From UHGV virus genome UHGV-0119950: 53,290 nt of DNA. One strand, given 5' to 3'. This document shows, piece after piece, positions 3,761-51,262 of the stretch; position 1 is the first letter of the stretch; each line of letters begins with the position of its first letter. The notes below the pieces were generated by a model. That model was not told the DNA's origin. It made no database searches and was given only the letters and a program-made list of their open reading frames with translations. The position numbers and the translations under genes are program-made. This stretch comes from a virus.

Positions 3761-6700
3761 TTATGCCTGTACGCGCAGCGCTTCAAGACGGCGCACATCA
3801 AAATCGTTGAGTTCTTCGGCGTAATCTTCGGTAATCGGCGCTGGCCATTCGCCAGTGTCGAACCCGTTCGCTATGGCGCGCATCGCTTTGCGGTATTCCA
3901 GCATGCCGAGTTCAAGCAGTTCTTCGGATGCCTCGATGATGGCGATCCAGTGGTAGTTCTCGTCTTTGTTGACGAATATCCAGAAAAACTGGTCCAGCGC
4001 TGCGGTTTCGCAGTACATGGCAGCGCTCAGGTGATAATCGCGCTCGATGATTTCCCGGTGCAGTTTGGCGCGTAGGCCTTCCTGCTTGATATTCCACATG
4101 CTGATAGTCTTCAGGTCAGCGCCGATGCGCAGGCCGCCCATGTCGATTTCAAGGTCTGGCCGCACGCGGATTTCCAGCCCGGTTTCCTCATCAATACCGA
4201 AATAGCTCACTTCTACGGCGCGGTTCGGATGCGTCAGCAGCTTCCCGGCGGTCGGGTGATTCAGCAGCGCTTTCTGGATGGCCTGCGCGGTGCTCAACTG
4301 CTGGCGGGTAACCAGAATTTTATCGCCGGGATTTTCTCGCCAAGCGTCAAGCAGCTCGTCGGCAAACACTGTTTCAGGTTTGACGGTTTTCACTGTCTGA
4401 ATCAGATCCGCTTTGGTGCCGGATACTTTCAACGGCTGTGGCTTCTGTGCTTCCTGTGCAACGAGATCAGGATTGATGATCGCCAGTTGCTCAAGCAGCG
4501 CGTCACGGCTTCCGCTGGTTTTCACCTGCGGCGGAAGGGTGGCGTTGTACTCTTTGATGCAGGCCTTCATTGCTGTGGCGGTATGCTTGGTTCCGTTCTC
4601 AATACGCTGGAACTCTTCAGGCAATTGCTCATATGATGCATACGATTCGTCAACGGATGCCCCAAGCGGTAACGGTGCGGGCAGGGTGGTGTTGTACTCT
4701 TCCAGTAGCGCTTTTATATCGTCGGCACTAAGCAGCGGCGGCAGGCTGGCGTTGTGCTCGTCGATAACCGCGCGGATCGTCGCTGTCGTCGTAAGCGCGC
4801 CTTCCGGGATTTCCGGTTCGATGCTGAACTCTTTTTCCAGTTGTTCAGGCTGTAACGCCAGCGCATGCACCAGGTTCCCCATATCCAGGACTTTGGTGCG
4901 TTCTTTCTGGATGGTTTTGGATACGTGGCGCGCCTCGAAATACATCAGCGATACCCGCGCATCTTTTACCATCGTCGAACTGATGCCATTCGCCGCGTGA
5001 TATACCTCGTTCGGTACGCCTTCATAACGCCCCGGCTCGAAGTATTCCGGCCACACTGGCGTTGGTTCTTCCTGTTGCGCTTCTGGCTCAGAATGGCTTG
5101 CAGAATCGTTGTTCTGGCTCACTTCCGACTGATTGTGGTCTACATCGGCTTGCTCGCCGGTATCTGCTTCTTCACCATTCCCCAAATCGCTTTCGCTTGT
5201 ACGCAGCGCATCACCAGTCTGTTTTTCATCACTGACAGTTTCTTGAACCTGCACATCGCTGGTGGTCTCCGCTTCCTGTTTTGTGCCATGAGTTGAGGAG
5301 TTCTGCATTAAAGCGGACACGTCGAAAATGTCGTCTGCAACTTTTTTCACCAGTTCAGGTTGCTCGGTTTGCTGGCTTGTCTCTGTCTTCACCCATTTCG
5401 GATCATTTGGGTCGCTGATACCCGGAACGAATTCACCGCGACCGGCGGCAAGCTGGCGTTCAACCTCTTCGCGGAGTAACTCAAGCGCAGAAGTGACCTT
5501 CTCGGGTGCCGGAGCCATCGGCATTGGCATTGATGAGCGACCGCAGGCGATATCAACGATCATTTCATCCGGGTGAGCGTGATCGGTTTCAGTCATGACA
5601 CGATTGAGATACTCGCGATGACGGAAAGGAGATTTAAACAGTTCCTCTGGCGTTGTTTTTACCGTAGCGACATTGCAGGCGCGGGAGTAATCCATCCCAC
5701 CAGGCATTTCTTCAAACAATTTGCAGGTCGCAATAAATTCATCGAGTACGTTATCTTCCCCTGAGCGGGAGAGATTCATAATGGCGTTGGCTTCAACATC
5801 GATCTCGAAGGAAGGGCTGTAAATATCGAACTCTTTGTTACGGGCGATCAGGCCAAGTGCTATTTCATATTCGAGCCCGGTTTTTGTCAGTGGAGTAAGA
5901 CGGTCAGTCTTATTACCGCCACCGGCGTTCGCGCCAGATGGTGTGCGATTAATTTCAGATACACGATTACCTTTGCACCACTCTTTAACGAGCAGCCCGC
6001 GATCAATATGAGGGGTATCGAACCATGTTTTCAGAAACTGGATAACGCTTGCCAGCTCAGGGATTTTGCCATCGGCAGGAAACACGCTCTTAACAGCATT
6101 TACCGCTTTATGGATATCGTGTTCAATGGCCTTTTTGAATGGTTCAACATTCTCAGCCGCAAGTAAAAGGTTCTGGACATATGAATTATCTGTGTCCATT
6201 TCCAGAGCGAGAATTGCTTTTTTCTGCTCTGCGTCGACATGATAGAGATACTCGCCATCGCCAATATGTTGAGCCAGAACACGATGACGGAAGGGCATTG
6301 TTGCCACAACGGTTAACTGAGGGTGTTCAGGTAGATCGCCATTGTCTTCAGTTGACGCCTGATCGTGCTGGATAATTTCGCCAGTTTCGGTATCGACAAC
6401 TTCTTCATTGCCAAAATCTTCCGTGTGATCTTCCAGCACTTCACCTGTTTCGGTATCAACACCATCAACGATACGCTGACGGGCGACGGCAACGGCCTCA
6501 GAAGAGGGCAACGTAACACCGGGGATCTGTACCCAGGTCATGTTGTCTTTGCCGAGTTGGTAGAAATCGCAGAACGTTAAGCTGAGTTCGCCTTCTGGCG
6601 GAAGCTCGTTAACGACGGGGAAATTAGTGGCAACAGCTTTAAAATAATCTTTCAGCTTTGCGCCGGATTTAATCAGGAGATAATCCAGTGTGGCATTTGC

Positions 6701-6796
6701 CGCTTCAAAATCATCGCTGCACCAGAGAACTGCATCTTTATGGCCAGATGATTTCTTTGCTTTGCGGACTAAAAATACAGGATTAGTTCCACTCAT
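3761..6796 (-). CDS. exodeoxyribonuclease VIII-like (RecE-like) with long acidic central region
   Basis: About 1011 aa from ATG with RBS GAGGA (MSGTNPVFLV...); large size, nuclease-like C-terminus and pairing with RecT-like gene. Track ORF start at 7003 would overlap upstream gene. Confidence 0.7.
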   Translation of the reverse strand: MSGTNPVFLVRKAKKSSGHKDAVLWCSDDFEAANATLDYLLIKSGAKLKDYFKAVATNFPVVNELPPEGELSLTFCDFYQLGKDNMTWVQIPGVTLPSSEAVAVARQRIVDGVDTETGEVLEDHTEDFGNEEVVDTETGEIIQHDQASTEDNGDLPEHPQLTVVATMPFRHRVLAQHIGDGEYLYHVDAEQKKAILALEMDTDNSYVQNLLLAAENVEPFKKAIEHDIHKAVNAVKSVFPADGKIPELASVIQFLKTWFDTPHIDRGLLVKEWCKGNRVSEINRTPSGANAGGGNKTDRLTPLTKTGLEYEIALGLIARNKEFDIYSPSFEIDVEANAIMNLSRSGEDNVLDEFIATCKLFEEMPGGMDYSRACNVATVKTTPEELFKSPFRHREYLNRVMTETDHAHPDEMIVDIACGRSSMPMPMAPAPEKVTSALELLREEVERQLAAGRGEFVPGISDPNDPKWVKTETSQQTEQPELVKKVADDIFDVSALMQNSSTHGTKQEAETTSDVQVQETVSDEKQTGDALRTSESDLGNGEEADTGEQADVDHNQSEVSQNNDSASHSEPEAQQEEPTPVWPEYFEPGRYEGVPNEVYHAANGISSTMVKDARVSLMYFEARHVSKTIQKERTKVLDMGNLVHALALQPEQLEKEFSIEPEIPEGALTTTATIRAVIDEHNASLPPLLSADDIKALLEEYNTTLPAPLPLGASVDESYASYEQLPEEFQRIENGTKHTATAMKACIKEYNATLPPQVKTSGSRDALLEQLAIINPDLVAQEAQKPQPLKVSGTKADLIQTVKTVKPETVFADELLDAWRENPGDKILVTRQQLSTAQAIQKALLNHPTAGKLLTHPNRAVEVSYFGIDEETGLEIRVRPDLEIDMGGLRIGADLKTISMWNIKQEGLRAKLHREIIERDYHLSAAMYCETAALDQFFWIFVNKDENYHWIAIIEASEELLELGMLEYRKAMRAIANGFDTGEWPAPITEDYAEELNDFDVRRLEALRVQA

Positions 6797-6920
6797 TATT
6801 TGATCCTCAATTCGTGTAGAATGGAGGCGCCTTAATGGCACCTCGGTTTTACCAGGTGATGTCCGGTGTAACTTTGGTCGGTGCCACCGGACGGAAGGCC
6901 CACCCTGTGTGGGCTTTCGC

Positions 6921-7208
6921 TTAATGAACAGTTCTGAAAACTTTTTCTGAGTAATCGAGTTTGTAGCTGCGGTAGTTGCCAAAACCGGCGTTATCGCCAT
7001 CACTTACTTTCACGGACAACATTGAAATTGCCTCTACAGCACAAAGAGGACAGTCGAACTTGCCGAATACATAGCCACCGTCAAGAATGACCGTGACCGC
7101 GCCCGTTTCGGCTGAATGAATAACGCCTGATACTTTCTTCTCGCAGTTGAATACAGCCAATTCTTTATTCACTGCTTTCAGGTTCATTTCGATTTTTGCG
7201 ATTTCCAT
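6921..7208 (-). CDS. hypothetical early protein
   Basis: 95 aa ORF in early-left operon. Confidence 0.45.
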   Translation of the reverse strand: MEIAKIEMNLKAVNKELAVFNCEKKVSGVIHSAETGAVTVILDGGYVFGKFDCPLCAVEAISMLSVKVSDGDNAGFGNYRSYKLDYSEKVFRTVH

Positions 7209-8256: not shown

Positions 8257-8526
8257 ATGTTGGGAGAGGGAGCGTGTGTTATGCTCACAAAAACATCAAT
8301 TGGCGAGGGCTGGGTGATGGATTACGAAGAACTGGCGCAACTGCGCTATCAGGAAATGTGCCGGATTGTGGGGGATGTCGTTTTTGCGATGGTGGCTGAA
8401 GGGCATGAAACCAAAAGAGTGGCTATAGCTGACGTGATACGAACGGAGATATCGAAGGGGCTGGATAAGTGGGATGCTGACCAGATTCAGGTTATGGAAC
8501 TGGCAGTGAAGTTTCTGGAAGAGTAG
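8257..8526 (+). CDS. hypothetical protein transcribed divergently from early-left operon
   Basis: 89 aa ORF (possible later start at MLTKTS); followed by strong terminator. Confidence 0.45.
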   Translation: MLGEGACVMLTKTSIGEGWVMDYEELAQLRYQEMCRIVGDVVFAMVAEGHETKRVAIADVIRTEISKGLDKWDADQIQVMELAVKFLEE

Positions 8527-8528
8527 GG

Positions 8529-8562
8529 CAATAAAAAACCCGGCTCGGTGGCCGGGTGTTTT
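8529..8562. terminator. bidirectional rho-independent terminator
   Basis: Hairpin CCCGGCTCGGTGGCCGGG flanked by A-run upstream and T-run downstream; ends both the 8257..8526 gene and the minus-strand cassette. Confidence 0.6.
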
Positions 8563-8954
8563 TAGTTACACGCGAATTTTATACCATCTAGTGTTGTGTT
8601 TTTAAGGATGTCTTCGGCATAAAATTTGAAGTAAACCCTCATCAAAGATGAAAAATACCAAGTATATTCCTTTAAAAAATCCTCATTGAGATTTTCGCTT
8701 TTTGGATAAGAGAAAATCATTCTAATGTCGATTTTTAGAGAAAAATCTGGTTTTTCACTGCCTTTCCTGAACCCTTGAGCGATGGGGCTTGCTGAAACTT
8801 TAATTGATGACATTGATGGATCGCCACCACCGACTTCAAAATCTAAGGCGCCATATACAACCTTGATCGTGCCCTCACCAGGTGTAAGCATGGTTTGATT
8901 GAACTCCACGTTTAGAATCGCAGATTCAACCATGTTGATATCGTTAGGCAACAT
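8562..8954 (-). CDS. hypothetical protein, cassette gene 3 of 3
   Basis: 130 aa; AT-rich; start overlaps stop of upstream gene by 11 nt; no recognisable motif. Confidence 0.5.
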   Translation of the reverse strand: MLPNDINMVESAILNVEFNQTMLTPGEGTIKVVYGALDFEVGGGDPSMSSIKVSASPIAQGFRKGSEKPDFSLKIDIRMIFSYPKSENLNEDFLKEYTWYFSSLMRVYFKFYAEDILKNTTLDGIKFACN

Positions 8955-9363
8955 TTATCTCATAATCCCTGTTTTGAGGCTTAATGGTAATCTTGATGAC
9001 TGGGCTTGGTTCGTCCATGAAACTATTTAAATTCATAACGTAGTGCTTATGAGCAGGTATAACAGGATGAGAAACATCACATCCATTCTTCAGGATTACT
9101 ACTTTTGCTTCGGCACCTAGAGCGTAGGAAATATCGGAGAGGGTTTTTAGTGTCATGTTCCTAGTTCCATCTAGCAACTGAGAAACATGCGAAGCCGACT
9201 TGCCAAGTTTTTTAGCAAGTTCACGCTTAGTTATACCTGTATCCTGCATAGCTAAAAGGATGTCTTCTGTAGTATTGAACACTAATCGTTCGGAAGCCAT
9301 CTCTCTATCACTAATGTATGGAAAACCAAAAATTTCTTCTGCGAAAGTCTTATCAGTAGTCAT
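8944..9363 (-). CDS. XRE-family HTH DNA-binding protein (antitoxin-like), cassette gene 2 of 3
   Basis: 139 aa; helix-turn-helix segment ITKRELAKKLGKSASHVSQLLDG; overlaps both neighbours. Confidence 0.6.
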   Translation of the reverse strand: MTTDKTFAEEIFGFPYISDREMASERLVFNTTEDILLAMQDTGITKRELAKKLGKSASHVSQLLDGTRNMTLKTLSDISYALGAEAKVVILKNGCDVSHPVIPAHKHYVMNLNSFMDEPSPVIKITIKPQNRDYEINVA

Positions 9364-9781
9364 CTAAACCTCTCTCGATTCTCTCCCAGTTGTTACAAAC
9401 TTTTTGGACATCAGAATCGCTTAAATCATCAAAATCTTTGTAGATGTAATGACTCATAAAATAAGTCATTGATACTCTCTCCGACTCCCAGTAGTACCCT
9501 CGAATAGGTATCTTCTTTATAGCCCAGAAATTTTTTTTAGGTTTGCCATTGTAAGAAGGCAGTATTCCTTCCTTTCTGACGCTGAGATCTGGAGTTCTTT
9601 TACCTGATGCCAGGCGCTCTATTTGTAGTCTAAGCTTGACCATCATGGCTTTTTGCTTCTTAGCAGGAGTAACACTCAGTATCGCATCAGCTAGAGTTTT
9701 TAGCGCTCCATTACAATGGGTTACAGTGAAGCAAGCGCCCTTAAAAGTATGTTGAACCATCCACTTATCCATAGTTAACAT
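9353..9781 (-). CDS. hypothetical protein, possible RelE/HigB-like toxin fold, cassette gene 1 of 3
   Basis: 142 aa; AT-rich; precedes an HTH gene in toxin-then-antitoxin order; toxin assignment is only by arrangement and loose pattern; start codon uncertain (no clear RBS). Confidence 0.45.
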   Translation of the reverse strand: MLTMDKWMVQHTFKGACFTVTHCNGALKTLADAILSVTPAKKQKAMMVKLRLQIERLASGKRTPDLSVRKEGILPSYNGKPKKNFWAIKKIPIRGYYWESERVSMTYFMSHYIYKDFDDLSDSDVQKVCNNWERIERGLDDY

Positions 9782-9875
9782 ATATATTAACTCACAATTT
9801 GCAAGTGAGCCACCTTCATCTTATAGAGATAATCCGAAAAGCATGATGGTTAGCAATTCATGTCCTTATCAACTC

Positions 9876-10031
9876 TCAAAGGGACATACCGATAACGGCA
9901 TTAACCACACTTGACGCCATAAACACGCCGCCAACGATGAAGCTGGCCTGGTTCTTCCTGGTAGCGCCAAGAGTCAACAGAACCACTGAAAGGGCAAAGA
10001 AAGGTATCGCGATTATGCTGAACGTGTTCAT
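9876..10031 (-). CDS. small hydrophobic membrane protein, 51 aa
   Basis: Not in ORF track. Translation MNTFSIIAIPFFALSVVLLTLGATRKNQASFIVGGVFMASSVVNAVIGMSL; two hydrophobic stretches; directly downstream of repressor gene on same strand. Confidence 0.4.
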   Translation of the reverse strand: MNTFSIIAIPFFALSVVLLTLGATRKNQASFIVGGVFMASSVVNAVIGMSL

Positions 10032-10043
10032 GTTGACCTCAAG

Positions 10044-10463
10044 TTATTGCGATTCTCCGTCACCCTTAATCCGTCGCCCCATGTACTTCGCGTACAGCTC
10101 GTCGAGCTCCTTCAGTCGCAGAGATACGATCCGCAACATGTTCTGCTGCTCTTCTTCCGGCAGCTGGCGATAGAGTTCCAGCAGGCGCTGCTCGTCAGGC
10201 TTCATACCATCTTTCTCGCCGACATCTTCCCCGAGCAGCCAGGCGACCGAAACACCAACAGCATCGGCTATAGCCAGTGCTGATTTTTTGCTAATAACGC
10301 CTTTTTTAAACCAGCTATTGACCGCCTGAGGCGAGACTCCGGCTATTCGCGCCATATCTGCTTTGGTAATGCCTCTGGCATAGACCTCGTTGAGTCGCGC
10401 TATCAATGCTTTGTTGGGTTCTTCTTTTCTCATTCTCTCATTGTAAATGGTTAGTTTACACAC
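10044..10463 (-). CDS. prophage repressor, CI-like HTH, no S24 peptidase domain
   Basis: 139 aa; HTH (ITKADMARIAGVSPQAVNSWFKKG); divergent from cro-like gene; too short for a LexA-like cleavage domain. Confidence 0.75.
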   Translation of the reverse strand: MCKLTIYNERMRKEEPNKALIARLNEVYARGITKADMARIAGVSPQAVNSWFKKGVISKKSALAIADAVGVSVAWLLGEDVGEKDGMKPDEQRLLELYRQLPEEEQQNMLRIVSLRLKELDELYAKYMGRRIKGDGESQ

Positions 10464-16825: not shown

Positions 16826-17082
16826 TGGATCAACTTCTGCAATACGCCACCAATCGGATTATAGAACTGGAAAACCTTCTGCTGGTGAATGTTGAGGAAA
16901 CGGTCTGGCCAGCAGAGGTTCAGATGGTTTTTAGTCAAATCGAAAACGCCGGGAGTTTCCCGGCGCACCACCAGCGCCGATTGCAGCACCACATCAACAG
17001 AATGTGGCTGGAAAAAATACCGGTTACTTCGATTATTGCCGCAGCGCGCTCGCTGGCAGATGCAATGGAGAAATACGCGTGA
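16822..17082 (+). CDS. hypothetical protein
   Basis: 86 aa ORF. Confidence 0.4.
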   Translation: MMDQLLQYATNRIIELENLLLVNVEETVWPAEVQMVFSQIENAGSFPAHHQRRLQHHINRMWLEKIPVTSIIAAARSLADAMEKYA

Positions 17083-19160
17083 GAAATAGCGAAATCATTG
17101 TTGATAATTTTGCTGGTGGCGGCGGTGCTTCCACTGGAATTGAGATGGCGACTGGCCGCAGCGTGGACATTGCGATTAACCACGATCCGAATGCCGTTGC
17201 GATGCACACGACAAACCACCCCAATACACTGCATTATTGCGAATCTGTCTACGATGTCAGGCCGAAGGTAGCGACCGCCGGGCGTCCGGTGGCGCTGGCG
17301 TGGTTCTCGCCGGATTGCCGTCACTTTTCAAAAGCCAAAGGTGCGAAGCCGGTAGAGAAAGCGATCCGGGGTCTGGCCTGGGTAGTTCTGCGCTGGGGGC
17401 TGGATGTAAAACCCCGGGTGATGAAACTGGAGAACGTCGAAGAATTTAAAACGTGGGGCCCTTTGCTCGCTGGTGAAATGAGGCCAGACCCGGCCCGTGC
17501 TGGAGAAAATTTTGAGGCGTTCATTGGTATGCTGACTACTGGCATCCGGGCTGACCACCCGGCACTGGCGGAGTGCTGTGAATTTCTGGGTATTTCTCTT
17601 GATAGTGAAGACGCCGCGAGGCTGATCAAAGGGCTGGGCTACATCGTCGAGTATCGCGAGTTGCGCGCCTGCGACTACGGTGCGCCGACGATCCGCAAGC
17701 GATTCTTTATGATTATGCGTTGTGACGGGAAACCGATTGTGTGGCCTGAGCCAACACATGGCGATCCGAAATCACCGGCTGTCCAGGCTGGTAAGCTGGC
17801 ACCGTGGCGCACAGCTGCGGAGTGCATAGACTGGACAATTCCGGCTCCATCGATATTCGATCGCAAAAAGCCGCTGGCAGAAAATACCCTTAAGCGCATC
17901 GCGCGCGGCATCCAGCGATTTGTTATCGACAGTGCGTCGCCGTTTATCGTGAAGTGCAACCACACCAGCAGCCGTTCAAGTTATGATTGTTTCCGTGGGC
18001 AGCCACTGGAAGAACCCCTGCAAACGATCACGAAAAAGCATGGTTACGCCGTCGCAGTACCACATCTGACGAAGTTCCGTACCGGCGCAACCGGGCAGGA
18101 AGTCACCGAACCTGTACCGACTGTAACAGCTGGCACGTCGGCGCGCCCGGGTGGGAATGGTCATGCGCTTGGTATCGTTGAAGCTGCGCTGACTCCGTTC
18201 CTGGCTGGTAATGGCGGCAGTGAGTACCAGGCTAAGCCGCGCCCGCTGGATAAACCAGCTCACACTATACTGAAACAATCCCGGGCATGTGTCGTTGCGC
18301 CGGTTATCGCCCGACAGTTTGGCGCCAGCACCGGCCACCGCGCAGATGAGCCGAACGCGACTATTACCGCTGGTGGCGGCGGTAAATCGCAACTTGTTAC
18401 ATCGACACTGATCCAGATGGGATACGGGGAAAGGCCAGGTCAGGAACCTCGCGTTCTCCAGATCGAAAAACCGTTAGGGACAGTAACCGCTGGTGGAAAC
18501 AAGTTCGCCGTGGCCAGCGCATTTCTGGCGAAGCACTACGGCGGCAACTATACGGGACCGGGCGTCGGGCTGGATGAGCCGACTCACTCAGTTACGACGG
18601 TTGATCATCATGCGGTTGTTGCGGCACATCTAATGGTGAACAACACCGGGCATCCTGGCGGCTCCGTGGACTCTCCAGCGCATACCGTTACAACAGGAAA
18701 TCACCATGCTGTAGTGACTTCTCATCTTGTGCATTTGCGAGGGTTCTGCAAAGACGGTCAAAAAATGGATCAGCCGGTGCCAACGATTACCGCCGGAGGC
18801 CAGCATGTTGGGGAGGTGAAAACCACTCTGGCAGTTGAGCACTACAACGAACAGCGCGCGCAACAGACGTTGGCGTTCCTGCGTGAATATTGCGGCGAAG
18901 ATTGTACCGGGCTGGTGGATATCGACGGGATCACATATCGTATTGTTGATATCGGAATGCGCATGCTGCAACCGCATGAGCTTTACCGCGCGCAGGGCTT
19001 CCCGGACTGGTACATCATCGATCGGGATTATCGCGGCGTGAAGTATGCAAAGGATAAGCAGGTTGCCCGCTGCGGTAATGCTGTGCCGCCACCGTTCGCC
19101 GAGGCTCTGGTAAGGGCCAATTTACCCGAACTTTGCCAGCCGAAAGAAATGGCAGCGTAA
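17079..19160 (+). CDS. DNA (cytosine-5) methyltransferase with eight tandem repeats in the variable region
   Basis: Motif I DNFAGGGG, motif IV SPDCRHFS (Cys present, PDC not PCQ), motif VI LENVEEF, motif IX QGFPDWY, motif X CGNAV; GTG at 17079 with GGAG upstream chosen over track start 17004. Confidence 0.8.
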   Translation: MRNSEIIVDNFAGGGGASTGIEMATGRSVDIAINHDPNAVAMHTTNHPNTLHYCESVYDVRPKVATAGRPVALAWFSPDCRHFSKAKGAKPVEKAIRGLAWVVLRWGLDVKPRVMKLENVEEFKTWGPLLAGEMRPDPARAGENFEAFIGMLTTGIRADHPALAECCEFLGISLDSEDAARLIKGLGYIVEYRELRACDYGAPTIRKRFFMIMRCDGKPIVWPEPTHGDPKSPAVQAGKLAPWRTAAECIDWTIPAPSIFDRKKPLAENTLKRIARGIQRFVIDSASPFIVKCNHTSSRSSYDCFRGQPLEEPLQTITKKHGYAVAVPHLTKFRTGATGQEVTEPVPTVTAGTSARPGGNGHALGIVEAALTPFLAGNGGSEYQAKPRPLDKPAHTILKQSRACVVAPVIARQFGASTGHRADEPNATITAGGGGKSQLVTSTLIQMGYGERPGQEPRVLQIEKPLGTVTAGGNKFAVASAFLAKHYGGNYTGPGVGLDEPTHSVTTVDHHAVVAAHLMVNNTGHPGGSVDSPAHTVTTGNHHAVVTSHLVHLRGFCKDGQKMDQPVPTITAGGQHVGEVKTTLAVEHYNEQRAQQTLAFLREYCGEDCTGLVDIDGITYRIVDIGMRMLQPHELYRAQGFPDWYIIDRDYRGVKYAKDKQVARCGNAVPPPFAEALVRANLPELCQPKEMAA

Positions 19161-34359: not shown

Positions 34360-35820
34360 ATGGATGTCATTGTTGGTGGGGTTCCTTATGTCCGCGCCGA
34401 TAGCGTTTCCCATAATAAAATTGGAATCGCGATAACCACTCACAACAGGCCGGATGTCCTCGCAAAATCACTTGAGCAACATCGAAAATATTTACCTCCC
34501 GGTGCGGTCGTGTTCGTCATTGATGATGGTTCAAATCCGCCAGCAACAGCTCCGGGTTGGTGTAATTTAATCCGGCACGATAATTCAAAAGGCATTGTTG
34601 CTTCGAAGAACGCCAGTCTTACAGCGCTGATGGATGCCGGGTGCGAGCATCTTTTTTTATGGGACGATGACGCATGGCCGATTGCCGATGGCTGGCATCT
34701 TCCGTATATCGAATCGCCTGAGCCGCATCTTGCGTATCAGTTCCTCGACCTTGCCGGGCCGCGAAAACTTAACGATCTCGCTGTGCTTTATAGCGACGAT
34801 AAGCATGTGGCGTACACCGGACAGCGCGGCGTGATGCTGTATTACCACCGCAGCGCTATCGAGCGTGTCGGTGGTTTCGACTGGATTTACGGGCGCGGCA
34901 TGTACGAACACAGCGACCTTGCCCTGCGCATCCATAACGCCGGGCTGACGACGTGGGTTTATGCCGACGTCACCAGCTCAGATAAGTTGATTCATTCGCT
35001 CGATGAGCATGAAGCTGTAGACCGTTCGGTGCCAACGGCAGACAGGAAAGCGCTGGTGGAACGTAATGTAAAAATCCACAACGAGCGGCGCGATACGGGG
35101 TATACCGGCTATGTCGAATACCGGCGCCAGCGCGACGTTGTGATCACAACATTACTGACGAGCCAACCGGACCCGCAGCGCGGTACGAAAATGACGGCCT
35201 CGCCTGACATGCTGGCTAAATGGGCGGCTTCGCTCCGGCAGTGTGGACGTATCGCGCTGGTGGATGAATTACTAACGGCCCCGGCAGATGTTGAGCTATG
35301 TCGCGTTCCTGACGTGAAGATGAATGTCTACTTTCGTCGCTGGTTGCACATCTGGCAGCACCTGCGAGATCACCCTGAATACCGGTTCGTCTGGTGTACC
35401 GATGGTACCGATGTCGAAATGCTTCGCGCGCCATGGGAAGAAATGGAGGCCGGGAAGCTCTACGTTGGCTCGGAGCCGAAAACTTACGCTGACGCCTGGG
35501 CAAAACAGAATCATCCTGAACGCATCTATCAGGAATTCATCGAACAGCATCGCAACGATGTGATGCTTAACGCCGGGCTTCTGGGTGGCACGCGCGCTGA
35601 TGTGATGGCGTTCGCTCACGGCATCATCCGTCTTTACTACCGGATCGAGAGTTATCGGTTCTGGAAGACAGAGCAGGCTGATGCAGCGGTGGGCGATATG
35701 ATCGCATTTGGCATTGTCGCGCAGTCATTTGGCGATCGCATTGTCACCGGCCCGCGCATCCACACAGTGTTTAAGTCTGAAGGTATCGGTAAGGAGTACG
35801 CCTGGTTTAAACATAAATAA
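34360..35820 (+). CDS. two-domain glycosyltransferase (N-terminal GT-A/GT2-like)
   Basis: 486 aa; GIAITTHNRPDVLAKSL...VFVIDDGSNP and LWDDDAWP (DxD) match GT2 signatures; C-terminal half not identified. Confidence 0.7.
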   Translation: MDVIVGGVPYVRADSVSHNKIGIAITTHNRPDVLAKSLEQHRKYLPPGAVVFVIDDGSNPPATAPGWCNLIRHDNSKGIVASKNASLTALMDAGCEHLFLWDDDAWPIADGWHLPYIESPEPHLAYQFLDLAGPRKLNDLAVLYSDDKHVAYTGQRGVMLYYHRSAIERVGGFDWIYGRGMYEHSDLALRIHNAGLTTWVYADVTSSDKLIHSLDEHEAVDRSVPTADRKALVERNVKIHNERRDTGYTGYVEYRRQRDVVITTLLTSQPDPQRGTKMTASPDMLAKWAASLRQCGRIALVDELLTAPADVELCRVPDVKMNVYFRRWLHIWQHLRDHPEYRFVWCTDGTDVEMLRAPWEEMEAGKLYVGSEPKTYADAWAKQNHPERIYQEFIEQHRNDVMLNAGLLGGTRADVMAFAHGIIRLYYRIESYRFWKTEQADAAVGDMIAFGIVAQSFGDRIVTGPRIHTVFKSEGIGKEYAWFKHK

Positions 35821-50176: not shown

Positions 50177-51262
50177 TTACGTATTTACGATATTTTTCTT
50201 AACTTTTGCAGCGCGCGGCGCTAAATGCCGCGCCACTTTCCTTGAAGGTTCTTCTACAATGTGGAAAAGTATATGCGAAATGGCGAAACTTACGCCAACA
50301 ATCAACAAAACATTTGAGAATCCAAGTTTAGGATTATAAAATGGCACGGGAAGGTATTTTTTAAGAAGTACAGTTATTACTATTGTATGTACAAGATAAA
50401 GCGAATAAGAAACGTTGCCCATCCAGTCAAGGATTTTATTTAATTTTATCTCTCTTGTTGTTTCGAATATTGAAAGAGAAAGCAAAAGCATAAAAGCATA
50501 AACACCACAATTTAGCAATCCGTGACCGCCATTATATCCAGACATATAGAAGAATATAAATGCAAAAACAGAAATAAAGAGTAACGGCGCTGATATATTT
50601 TTGAAAGAGTGAATTTTTGCATAGTTATAGATCTGATAGATAACCATCCCAGCGACGAACTCAAGTAGCATTGGCGATGCGAACAGTTTTAGCACCCATG
50701 GGGCGCTAGGGTCGTTTAATGTTGAATATCCACTAAGATTAATCTCACCATTATATAGTATTCCCAAAATAGATACTGAAGCAATTATTATTGCAGTGCT
50801 AATATAAAATCTATTCTTCCAGGAAATCGACATCGCAAATGAAAATATGATGTAAAAAATTATCTCATACGTCAGAGTCCAGGCAGTTGATATCACCGAA
50901 TAACCGAACCAAGGGGCTGATTTCTCAAAGTTTAAGTTAATAAAGAAAAGGGCTTTTAGATAATTAATATCTATCGGCTTTGTGAATATTAATGCGCATG
51001 ACACCAGACATATAAAATAAACAGGGTATAATCTAAAAAAACGCTTCACAATAAATGAACGAACAGAGGAGTCCTTTTCTGTTGACAACATGATTACAAA
51101 TCCACTTATCATGAAAAAAAGATCCACTCCTATGTATCCATAGTTAAACAATATGTTACCCAAATTGCTCTGAGCATAAATATTGTTCAATTCTCCACGG
51201 GCATGATATAAGACGACAAGCAAAGCAGCTATTCCACGGAGGTATTGCAAAGAATAAAGCAT
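50177..51262 (-). CDS. acyltransferase family 3 membrane protein (O-antigen acetylase-like)
   Basis: 361 aa, many transmembrane segments; N-terminal LRGIAALLVVLYHA signature; AT-rich; convergent with tailspike. Confidence 0.75.
   Translation of the reverse strand: MLYSLQYLRGIAALLVVLYHARGELNNIYAQSNLGNILFNYGYIGVDLFFMISGFVIMLSTEKDSSVRSFIVKRFFRLYPVYFICLVSCALIFTKPIDINYLKALFFINLNFEKSAPWFGYSVISTAWTLTYEIIFYIIFSFAMSISWKNRFYISTAIIIASVSILGILYNGEINLSGYSTLNDPSAPWVLKLFASPMLLEFVAGMVIYQIYNYAKIHSFKNISAPLLFISVFAFIFFYMSGYNGGHGLLNCGVYAFMLLLSLSIFETTREIKLNKILDWMGNVSYSLYLVHTIVITVLLKKYLPVPFYNPKLGFSNVLLIVGVSFAISHILFHIVEEPSRKVARHLAPRAAKVKKNIVNT

Follow-up and report, generated by a model that had tools for sequence, protein, structure and literature searches.

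The window, by which we mean the whole stretch of 53,290 nt analysed here (UHGV virus genome UHGV-0119950), is as a whole a complete lambdoid prophage; its genes include those for integrase, RecE, immunity, O/P-type replication, head, and tail. On the cassette side of its repressor, which faces a YdaS/Cro-like gene, the ORF list of the window contains three minus-strand ORFs (9353-9781, 8944-9363, and 8562-8954; here A, B, and C) that overlap by 11 nt at both the A/B and the B/C junction. These coordinates and junctions are exactly those given in a first-pass annotation of the same DNA, which had also noted a same-strand repressor of the cI type upstream and an AT-rich composition relative to the phage backbone. 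Indeed, the upstream gene has the profile of a repressor (Table 1), and the GC content of the cassette is 0.389 versus 0.502 for the whole window and 0.49-0.51 for the flanking genes (repressor, small ORF, and DUF2767 gene), with only 2.4% of equal-length windows falling below the cassette. Comparison with a relative at dS 0.6-1.4 yielded dN/dS values of 0.04 for A, 0.08 for the N-terminal part of B, 0.12 for the B tail, and 0.04 for C, indicating that all three are real functional genes and not chance ORFs.

Table 1. Features of the cassette and its immediate surroundings (positions in the window; a dot marks features without strand).
Feature	Position	Strand	Remarks
Module as a whole	8538-9804		From promoter-like site to terminator
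Two-way intrinsic terminator	8538..8557	.	GC-rich hairpin, T run on both strands
Gene C, SecB-like TAC chaperone, 130 aa	8562..8954	-	Predicted fold
Gene B, C-terminal tail, residues 100-139 and stop	8944..9066	-	Putative chaperone-addiction (ChAD) element
Gene B, N-terminal part, residues 1-99	9067..9363	-	N-terminal segment and XRE-type HTH; antitoxin/repressor domain
HTH of B, residues 39-85	9109-9249	-	HTH_3 2.5e-6, HTH_26 1e-5
Gene A, HigB/RelE-fold toxin (predicted), 135 aa	9353..9760	-	ORF open back to 9781
18-bp palindrome	9774..9791	.	Putative B operator, overlaps the -10
Cassette promoter-like site	9777..9804	-	-35 TTGCAA 9804-9799, 16-nt spacer, -10 TATGTT 9782-9777
Two-helix membrane ORF, 51 aa	9876-10031	-	12 nt after the repressor stop
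Repressor	10044-10463	-	HTH_3/Phage_CI_repr/DicA-like; directly upstream, same strand

Upstream of A, the TTGcA element and the -10 region of a promoter-like site stand out as conserved from non-conserved surroundings when 13 divergent loci are aligned (alignment A5); the -10, TATGTT in the window, reads TATATT in most relatives. With 8/12 consensus positions, the site lies under the 9/12 threshold of our promoter scan and is for this reason absent from its list. An 18-bp palindrome, GTTAAYATATAYRTTAAC, has invariant columns in the same alignment. The window has a single copy of it, where chance would give 0.00, and 28 of 33 loci, the distant L027-L030 among them, likewise carry one copy close upstream of A. 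By analogy with HigA, for which autoregulation is known (PMC11980606), we infer that 9774-9804 comprises the cassette's own promoter together with an operator bound by B. Two other candidates were discarded: the inverted repeat CTCAC-N9-GTGAG (9809-9791) lacks the conservation of the palindrome next to it, and a promoter-like scan match at 9872-9843 falls into non-conserved sequence, in a scan that yielded fewer sites than expected by chance.

At the other end, the bidirectional terminator that had been placed at 8529-8562 was recovered as a hairpin scoring on both strands, which ends the cassette on one strand and the DUF2767 gene on the other; in HK639, a terminator is annotated at the corresponding position. 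The DUF2767 gene itself (window 8257-8526, plus strand; Pfam E 7e-37) converges on the cassette, with which it has this two-way terminator in common, and its homologue in a Salmonella phage is called "fumarate hydratase FumD" by RefSeq. The terminator scan of the window found no terminator between repressor and cassette, so that read-through from the repressor promoter is possible. The earlier view of the cassette as a simple part of the repressor operon was nevertheless too narrow. DNA homology between the cassette and its relatives begins at about 9839, roughly 80 bp 5' of A, and this block start, together with the promoter-like site and the invariant palindrome, makes the cassette an autonomous mosaic module and more than the tail of a repressor operon.

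The same block structure separates the cassette from the 51-aa membrane ORF, which the first-pass annotation had grouped with it. The ORF does exist: two public assemblies list it as a gene, and 49 of its 51 residues are identical to the HK225/HK97 sequence, with four of the seven nucleotide differences being synonymous. It sits, however, on a different mosaic block, common to HK97 and HK225 (95% identity), where the region is either unannotated or annotated on the opposite strand (HK225 gp45). Judged from these sequence comparisons, the ORF probably encodes a genuine small membrane protein made in lysogens, on a mosaic block of its own and separate from the cassette. Different small hydrophobic ORFs, of 30-41 aa, lie between the immunity region and the cassette in L003 (4685-4783), L008 (4818-4910), and L004 (4596-4721); the peptides of L003 and L008 are alike. 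The gap may be one that small membrane peptides occupy repeatedly.

Elsewhere in the window, a second low-GC island near 50-51 kb contains an O-antigen acetyltransferase-like ORF (50177-51262, minus strand), and the head/tail block contains a 486-aa glycosyltransferase-like ORF (34360-35820, plus strand); both are likely lysogenic-conversion morons. The late/early-right region carries a 718-aa DNA methyltransferase-like ORF (17004-19160, plus strand; PHROG E 1e-162), and a 1080-aa RecE/Exonuclease VIII-like ORF (3761-7003, minus strand) has a long acidic low-complexity central region. Genes of the left arm show patchy sharing with mEp237 and with Salmonella and Klebsiella prophages, and the structural genes are closest (80%) to Klebsiella prophages.

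For gene A, the most likely start is the ATG at 9760, since relatives have an in-frame stop before the equivalent ATG and the homologues are 134-137 aa long. Its predicted structure is a confident HigB/RelE fold, with a four-stranded antiparallel sheet flanked by helices, and the best structural matches include HigB1 of M. tuberculosis, the toxin of a toxin-antitoxin-chaperone (TAC) system. By sequence, searches of Pfam, NCBIfam, PADLOC, and PHROGs with A gave nothing at E <= 1, the curated models HigB_toxin, Gp49-like, and RelE/ParE included, and the profile of the A family found no PDB sequence. Within the family, 26 columns are invariant, some of them basic or aromatic positions of the sheet; in a comparison at the level of strands only, the invariant residues E64, K82, R87, H104, and K108 are on strands corresponding to those of HigB1 R68, R77, and K95. 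The model thus points to A as a putative ribosome-dependent mRNA endonuclease of the HigB/RelE fold.

Gene B encodes a protein of 139 aa with weak HigA/HipB-type profile matches and is preceded by a GAGAGG Shine-Dalgarno sequence. An XRE-type HTH had been read by eye in this middle protein and was indeed found by profile (HTH_3/HTH_26; Table 1). In PADLOC, the HTH region gave E values of 1e-11 to 1e-9 with the PDC-M64B/C models. PDC-M64 was rejected as the identity of the cassette, as only the generic HTH of B (residues 25-85) is matched and A and C have no PADLOC match; the literature searched contains no mention of PDC-M64. Downstream of the HTH, B carries a tail of 40 residues that ends in Val-Ala and has two aromatic residues, Y108 and Y134, 26 residues apart around a beta-like element (VIKITIK). 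Nearly all related tails have an aromatic at tail position 8-11 and a second one 26-30 residues further on, with an alternating-hydrophobic, beta-like stretch between them, and about a third only have a Val-Ala or Ala-Ala end. Both features parallel published ChADs, which rely on aromatic residues about 30 positions apart (Mets et al. 2024, bioRxiv 10.1101/2024.02.24.581848), and the Val-Ala ClpX degron of M. tuberculosis HigA1 (PMC8165232). Sequence comparison therefore presents the tail as a variable, chaperone-specific extension of the antitoxin and as a putative ChAD.

The predicted structure of C has a SecB fold and resembles the TAC chaperone Rv1957 as well as SecB by two independent methods, the best match being a TAC chaperone in complex with its ChAD peptide. 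The profile and structure searches that the first-pass annotation had proposed thus ended differently by type: profiles from Pfam, NCBIfam, PADLOC, and PHROGs gave no family for A and only phrog_19522, of unknown function, for C, and folds were obtained for both proteins. C has diverged to the point that no sequence method tried linked it to SecB; Pfam SecB matched neither C nor any of 50 C-family members, and a profile of the wider C family matched no PDB sequence. A housekeeping SecB can be discounted, given the lack of a Pfam SecB match and the location in a prophage toxin-antitoxin operon, not in the yibN-grxC-secB-gpsA context of housekeeping secB (Mets et al. 2024, bioRxiv 10.1101/2024.02.24.581848). 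The HigBA-like core with a third partner that had been suspected from the letters alone is borne out by the predicted HigB/RelE fold of A and the XRE-type HTH of B, and the SecB-like third partner makes the cassette a TAC system, an architecture that we regard as highly probable from sequence and structural models.

We compared this arrangement with 30 viral loci from IMG/VR that encode an A homologue. The order A-B-C is kept in all of them, with the genes overlapping or abutting in nearly all cases and every ORF intact, and C is never separated from A-B. Two of the loci belong to the cultured coliphages mEp237 and HK639, in which the genes are annotated as hypothetical. The toxin homologue HK639_49 (L036 2612-2905) is annotated with 97 aa; its deposited start appears mis-set, since the conserved ORF has 134 aa and begins about 110 nt upstream. 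Across the loci, mean pairwise identity is 68% for A and 64% for the N-terminal part of B, and it drops to 24% for the B tail and 40% for C. Distances of tail and C co-vary (Mantel r 0.66, p 2e-4; partial r 0.60 given A), a signal that is driven by close pairs, as the Spearman coefficient is only 0.30. A similar division is found between the window and mEp237, with identities of 90% for A, 78% for the N-terminal part of B, 12% for the tail, and 31% for C, and with DNA homology ending at 9105, which corresponds to codon ~86 of B at the HTH/tail boundary. ChAD/SecB pairs have been shown experimentally to be specific and transferable as a unit (PMC5105189), and both the break against mEp237 and the co-variation match the pattern expected if tail and chaperone formed one specificity unit. 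Positive selection was not detected in C or the tail, where dN/dS is well below 1 and dS is saturated in most pairs.

In six distant loci (L027-L032), the toxin is 41-46% identical and the third gene comes from a different family, which finds Rv1957 in a sequence search (E 7.6e-5); the same palindromic operator is present in four of these loci (L027-L030). These two observations argue for a SecB-type chaperone in the third position across the whole family. The distant third genes (e.g., L027 5835-6326) encode sequence-recognisable SecB-like proteins of 158-170 aa, and the accompanying antitoxin tails are longer and all end in -AA or -VA. Comparison of the two chaperone lineages by hhalign gave a probability of 6% or less. 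From these sequences, the distant loci seem to have had their sensor module exchanged naturally while the core stayed constant. Overall, the lineage is small: 1.84 billion proteins yielded 56 toxin clusters and 58 chaperone representatives, mostly from Enterobacterales. It is also rare in culture collections, with two of 50,697 phage records. Neither the window nor the mEp237 version of the cassette was detected at megablast sensitivity in any of 5,426 complete E. coli genomes, and a text search of the literature for mEp237 returned only unrelated DOI strings.

Established TAC systems are Rv1955-57 of M. tuberculosis and the antiphage HigBAC, CmdTAC, and MqsRAC systems of E. coli (Mets et al. 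2024), of which the validated HigBAC lies downstream of cI in lambdoid prophages (Mets et al., bioRxiv 10.1101/2024.02.24.581848). We located HigBAC of E. coli NT1F31 in E. coli E2865 (L033) through a primer given in the supplement of that paper. The two cassettes have in common the toxin-antitoxin-chaperone order with overlapping genes, a RelE-superfamily toxin, an HTH antitoxin with a C-terminal ChAD, a SecB-fold chaperone without Pfam match, and a location on a lambdoid prophage in the rexAB slot, where both follow immediately after the repressor. The first-pass annotation had drawn the parallel to this slot, and it extends to HK639, where the homologous cassette lies between a CI-like repressor and pL. 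Despite this likeness, identity with the published HigBAC is ruled out, as no component is significantly similar: HigB, HigA, and HigC of NT1F31 gave BLASTP E values of 26, 0.076, and 0.078 against the cassette, and hhalign gave a probability of 3%. NT1F31 HigB is a canonical PF09907 protein of 95 aa, whereas A has 135 aa and no Pfam match, and HigA (218 aa) has a ChAD of 96 residues with four aromatic anchors, compared with a tail of 40 residues and two or three aromatics in B (139 aa). The trigger of NT1F31 HigBAC is lambda gpV, the major tail protein.

The remaining systems are further away. HigB1-HigA1-SecB-like chaperone of M. tuberculosis (Rv1955-Rv1956-Rv1957) has about 8-13% sequence identity to the cassette and is chromosomal and actinobacterial, unlike the prophage-borne cassette described here; it has been proposed to act in stress response, not against phages. 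CmdTAC and MqsRAC of E. coli (Vassallo et al. 2022, 2024) are likewise chaperone-addicted toxin-antitoxin systems, whose SecB-like protein both protects the antitoxin and senses the phage, but their toxins, the mRNA ADP-ribosyltransferase CmdT and MqsR, are not of the HigB fold, and their contexts differ, too. In lambda, the same slot between repressor and pL is occupied by RexAB, an exclusion system of lysogens that acts by abortive infection. RexAB consists of two unrelated proteins, a sensor and a membrane ion channel, and is neither a toxin-antitoxin nor a chaperone system; none of the cassette proteins matched the PADLOC, Pfam, and PHROG families annotated as RexA or RexB.

Taken together, we assign a probability of about 0.7 to the reading that this lambdoid prophage carries, in the slot of lambda rexAB, a self-contained TAC module (window 8538-9804) that works as follows. 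A would be a ribosome-dependent mRNA endonuclease toxin, which the N-terminal/HTH part of B would bind and neutralise, and a B dimer would repress the cassette promoter at the palindrome GTTAATATATATGTTAAC. The B tail, through its Val-Ala ClpX-type degron, would destabilise B unless held by C, which would grip it probably via the two aromatic anchors about 26 residues apart, so that A-B-C would be inert in the lysogen. Upon infection, a phage protein would compete for C, B would be degraded, and the freed A would stop translation and abort the infection, with the fast-evolving, jointly exchanged tail and chaperone setting what is sensed. For the antiphage role itself, which is drawn by analogy, our confidence is lower than for the architecture, and we only lean towards it.

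Accordingly, a part of the doubt concerns function. A genuine TAC could serve in something other than defence, either in prophage addiction, in which loss of the prophage is lethal to the cell, or as a stress-responsive brake on growth when misfolded or secretory proteins titrate the chaperone. The evidence from architecture and fold would be the same for such a system, hijacking of the chaperone by aggregated or exported proteins has been proposed in M. tuberculosis (PMC8165232, PMC5105189), and a putative sensor without positive selection would fit as well. In contrast, the cassette occupies the slot of both lambda rexAB and a validated antiphage HigBAC, plasmid-style addiction is of little use to an integrated prophage, and the TACs tested in E. 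coli (HigBAC, CmdTAC, and MqsRAC) are all antiphage, which renders a role outside defence unlikely.

It is more improbable still that A and B form a HigBA-like pair whose neighbour C is no antitoxin chaperone, being instead a SecB-fold protein with another client in export or assembly, or a second regulator, with the tail of B not acting as a ChAD. Such a reading would accommodate the lack of sequence similarity between C and SecB or known TAC chaperones, and binding of the tail by C is deduced. Against this, the top structural match of C is a TAC chaperone with bound ChAD peptide, C is translationally coupled to B by the 11-nt overlap, it has stayed with A-B in all 30 loci and is exchanged jointly with the B tail, and related cassettes have a sequence-recognisable TAC-type SecB in the third position. 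A decayed remnant, in which the toxin no longer cleaves mRNA and is kept only as a transcription regulator, would have precedents in the non-toxic HigB2 and HigB3 of M. tuberculosis, which retain the fold (PMC9098466), and A has been compared with the catalytic residues of HigB1 by strand only, but the strong purifying selection on all three genes, the 26 invariant columns of A with their basic and aromatic sheet residues, and the intact ORFs at 30 of 30 loci leave this reading with very little probability.

Returning to the TAC module as the preferred reading, its mechanism is not new; what is new are TAC protein families that no current tool flags. The suggestion in the first-pass annotation that the cassette may be undescribed therefore applies to its sequence lineage and not to its mechanism, as TACs of this kind have already been described. 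That the C family has stayed unannotated is probably explained by its lack of a sequence link to SecB, since the TAC survey of Mets et al. 2024 used PSI-BLAST from a SecB-like query.

The use of TACs as phage sensors, in which the chaperone reads a phage structural protein, is a recent finding. The known antiphage TACs came from SecB-like sequence searches, and the lineage described here escapes both those searches and four profile libraries. We see an even chance that it is an unrecognised antiphage TAC lineage with a SecB-like sensor beyond sequence detection, in which one "warhead" of toxin, HTH, and operator has been recombined with at least two unrelated "sensor" modules of chaperone and ChAD. 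If so, SecB-based surveys and current defence finders miss this lineage, in which nature would have produced an equivalent of engineered hybrid TACs and every sensor would respond to a phage protein of its own. Three "hypothetical" genes of the long-available phages mEp237 and HK639 would thereby become a directly testable defence module, and the natural series of sensor swaps on a constant toxin/operator core would be useful for learning how TAC specificity is set.
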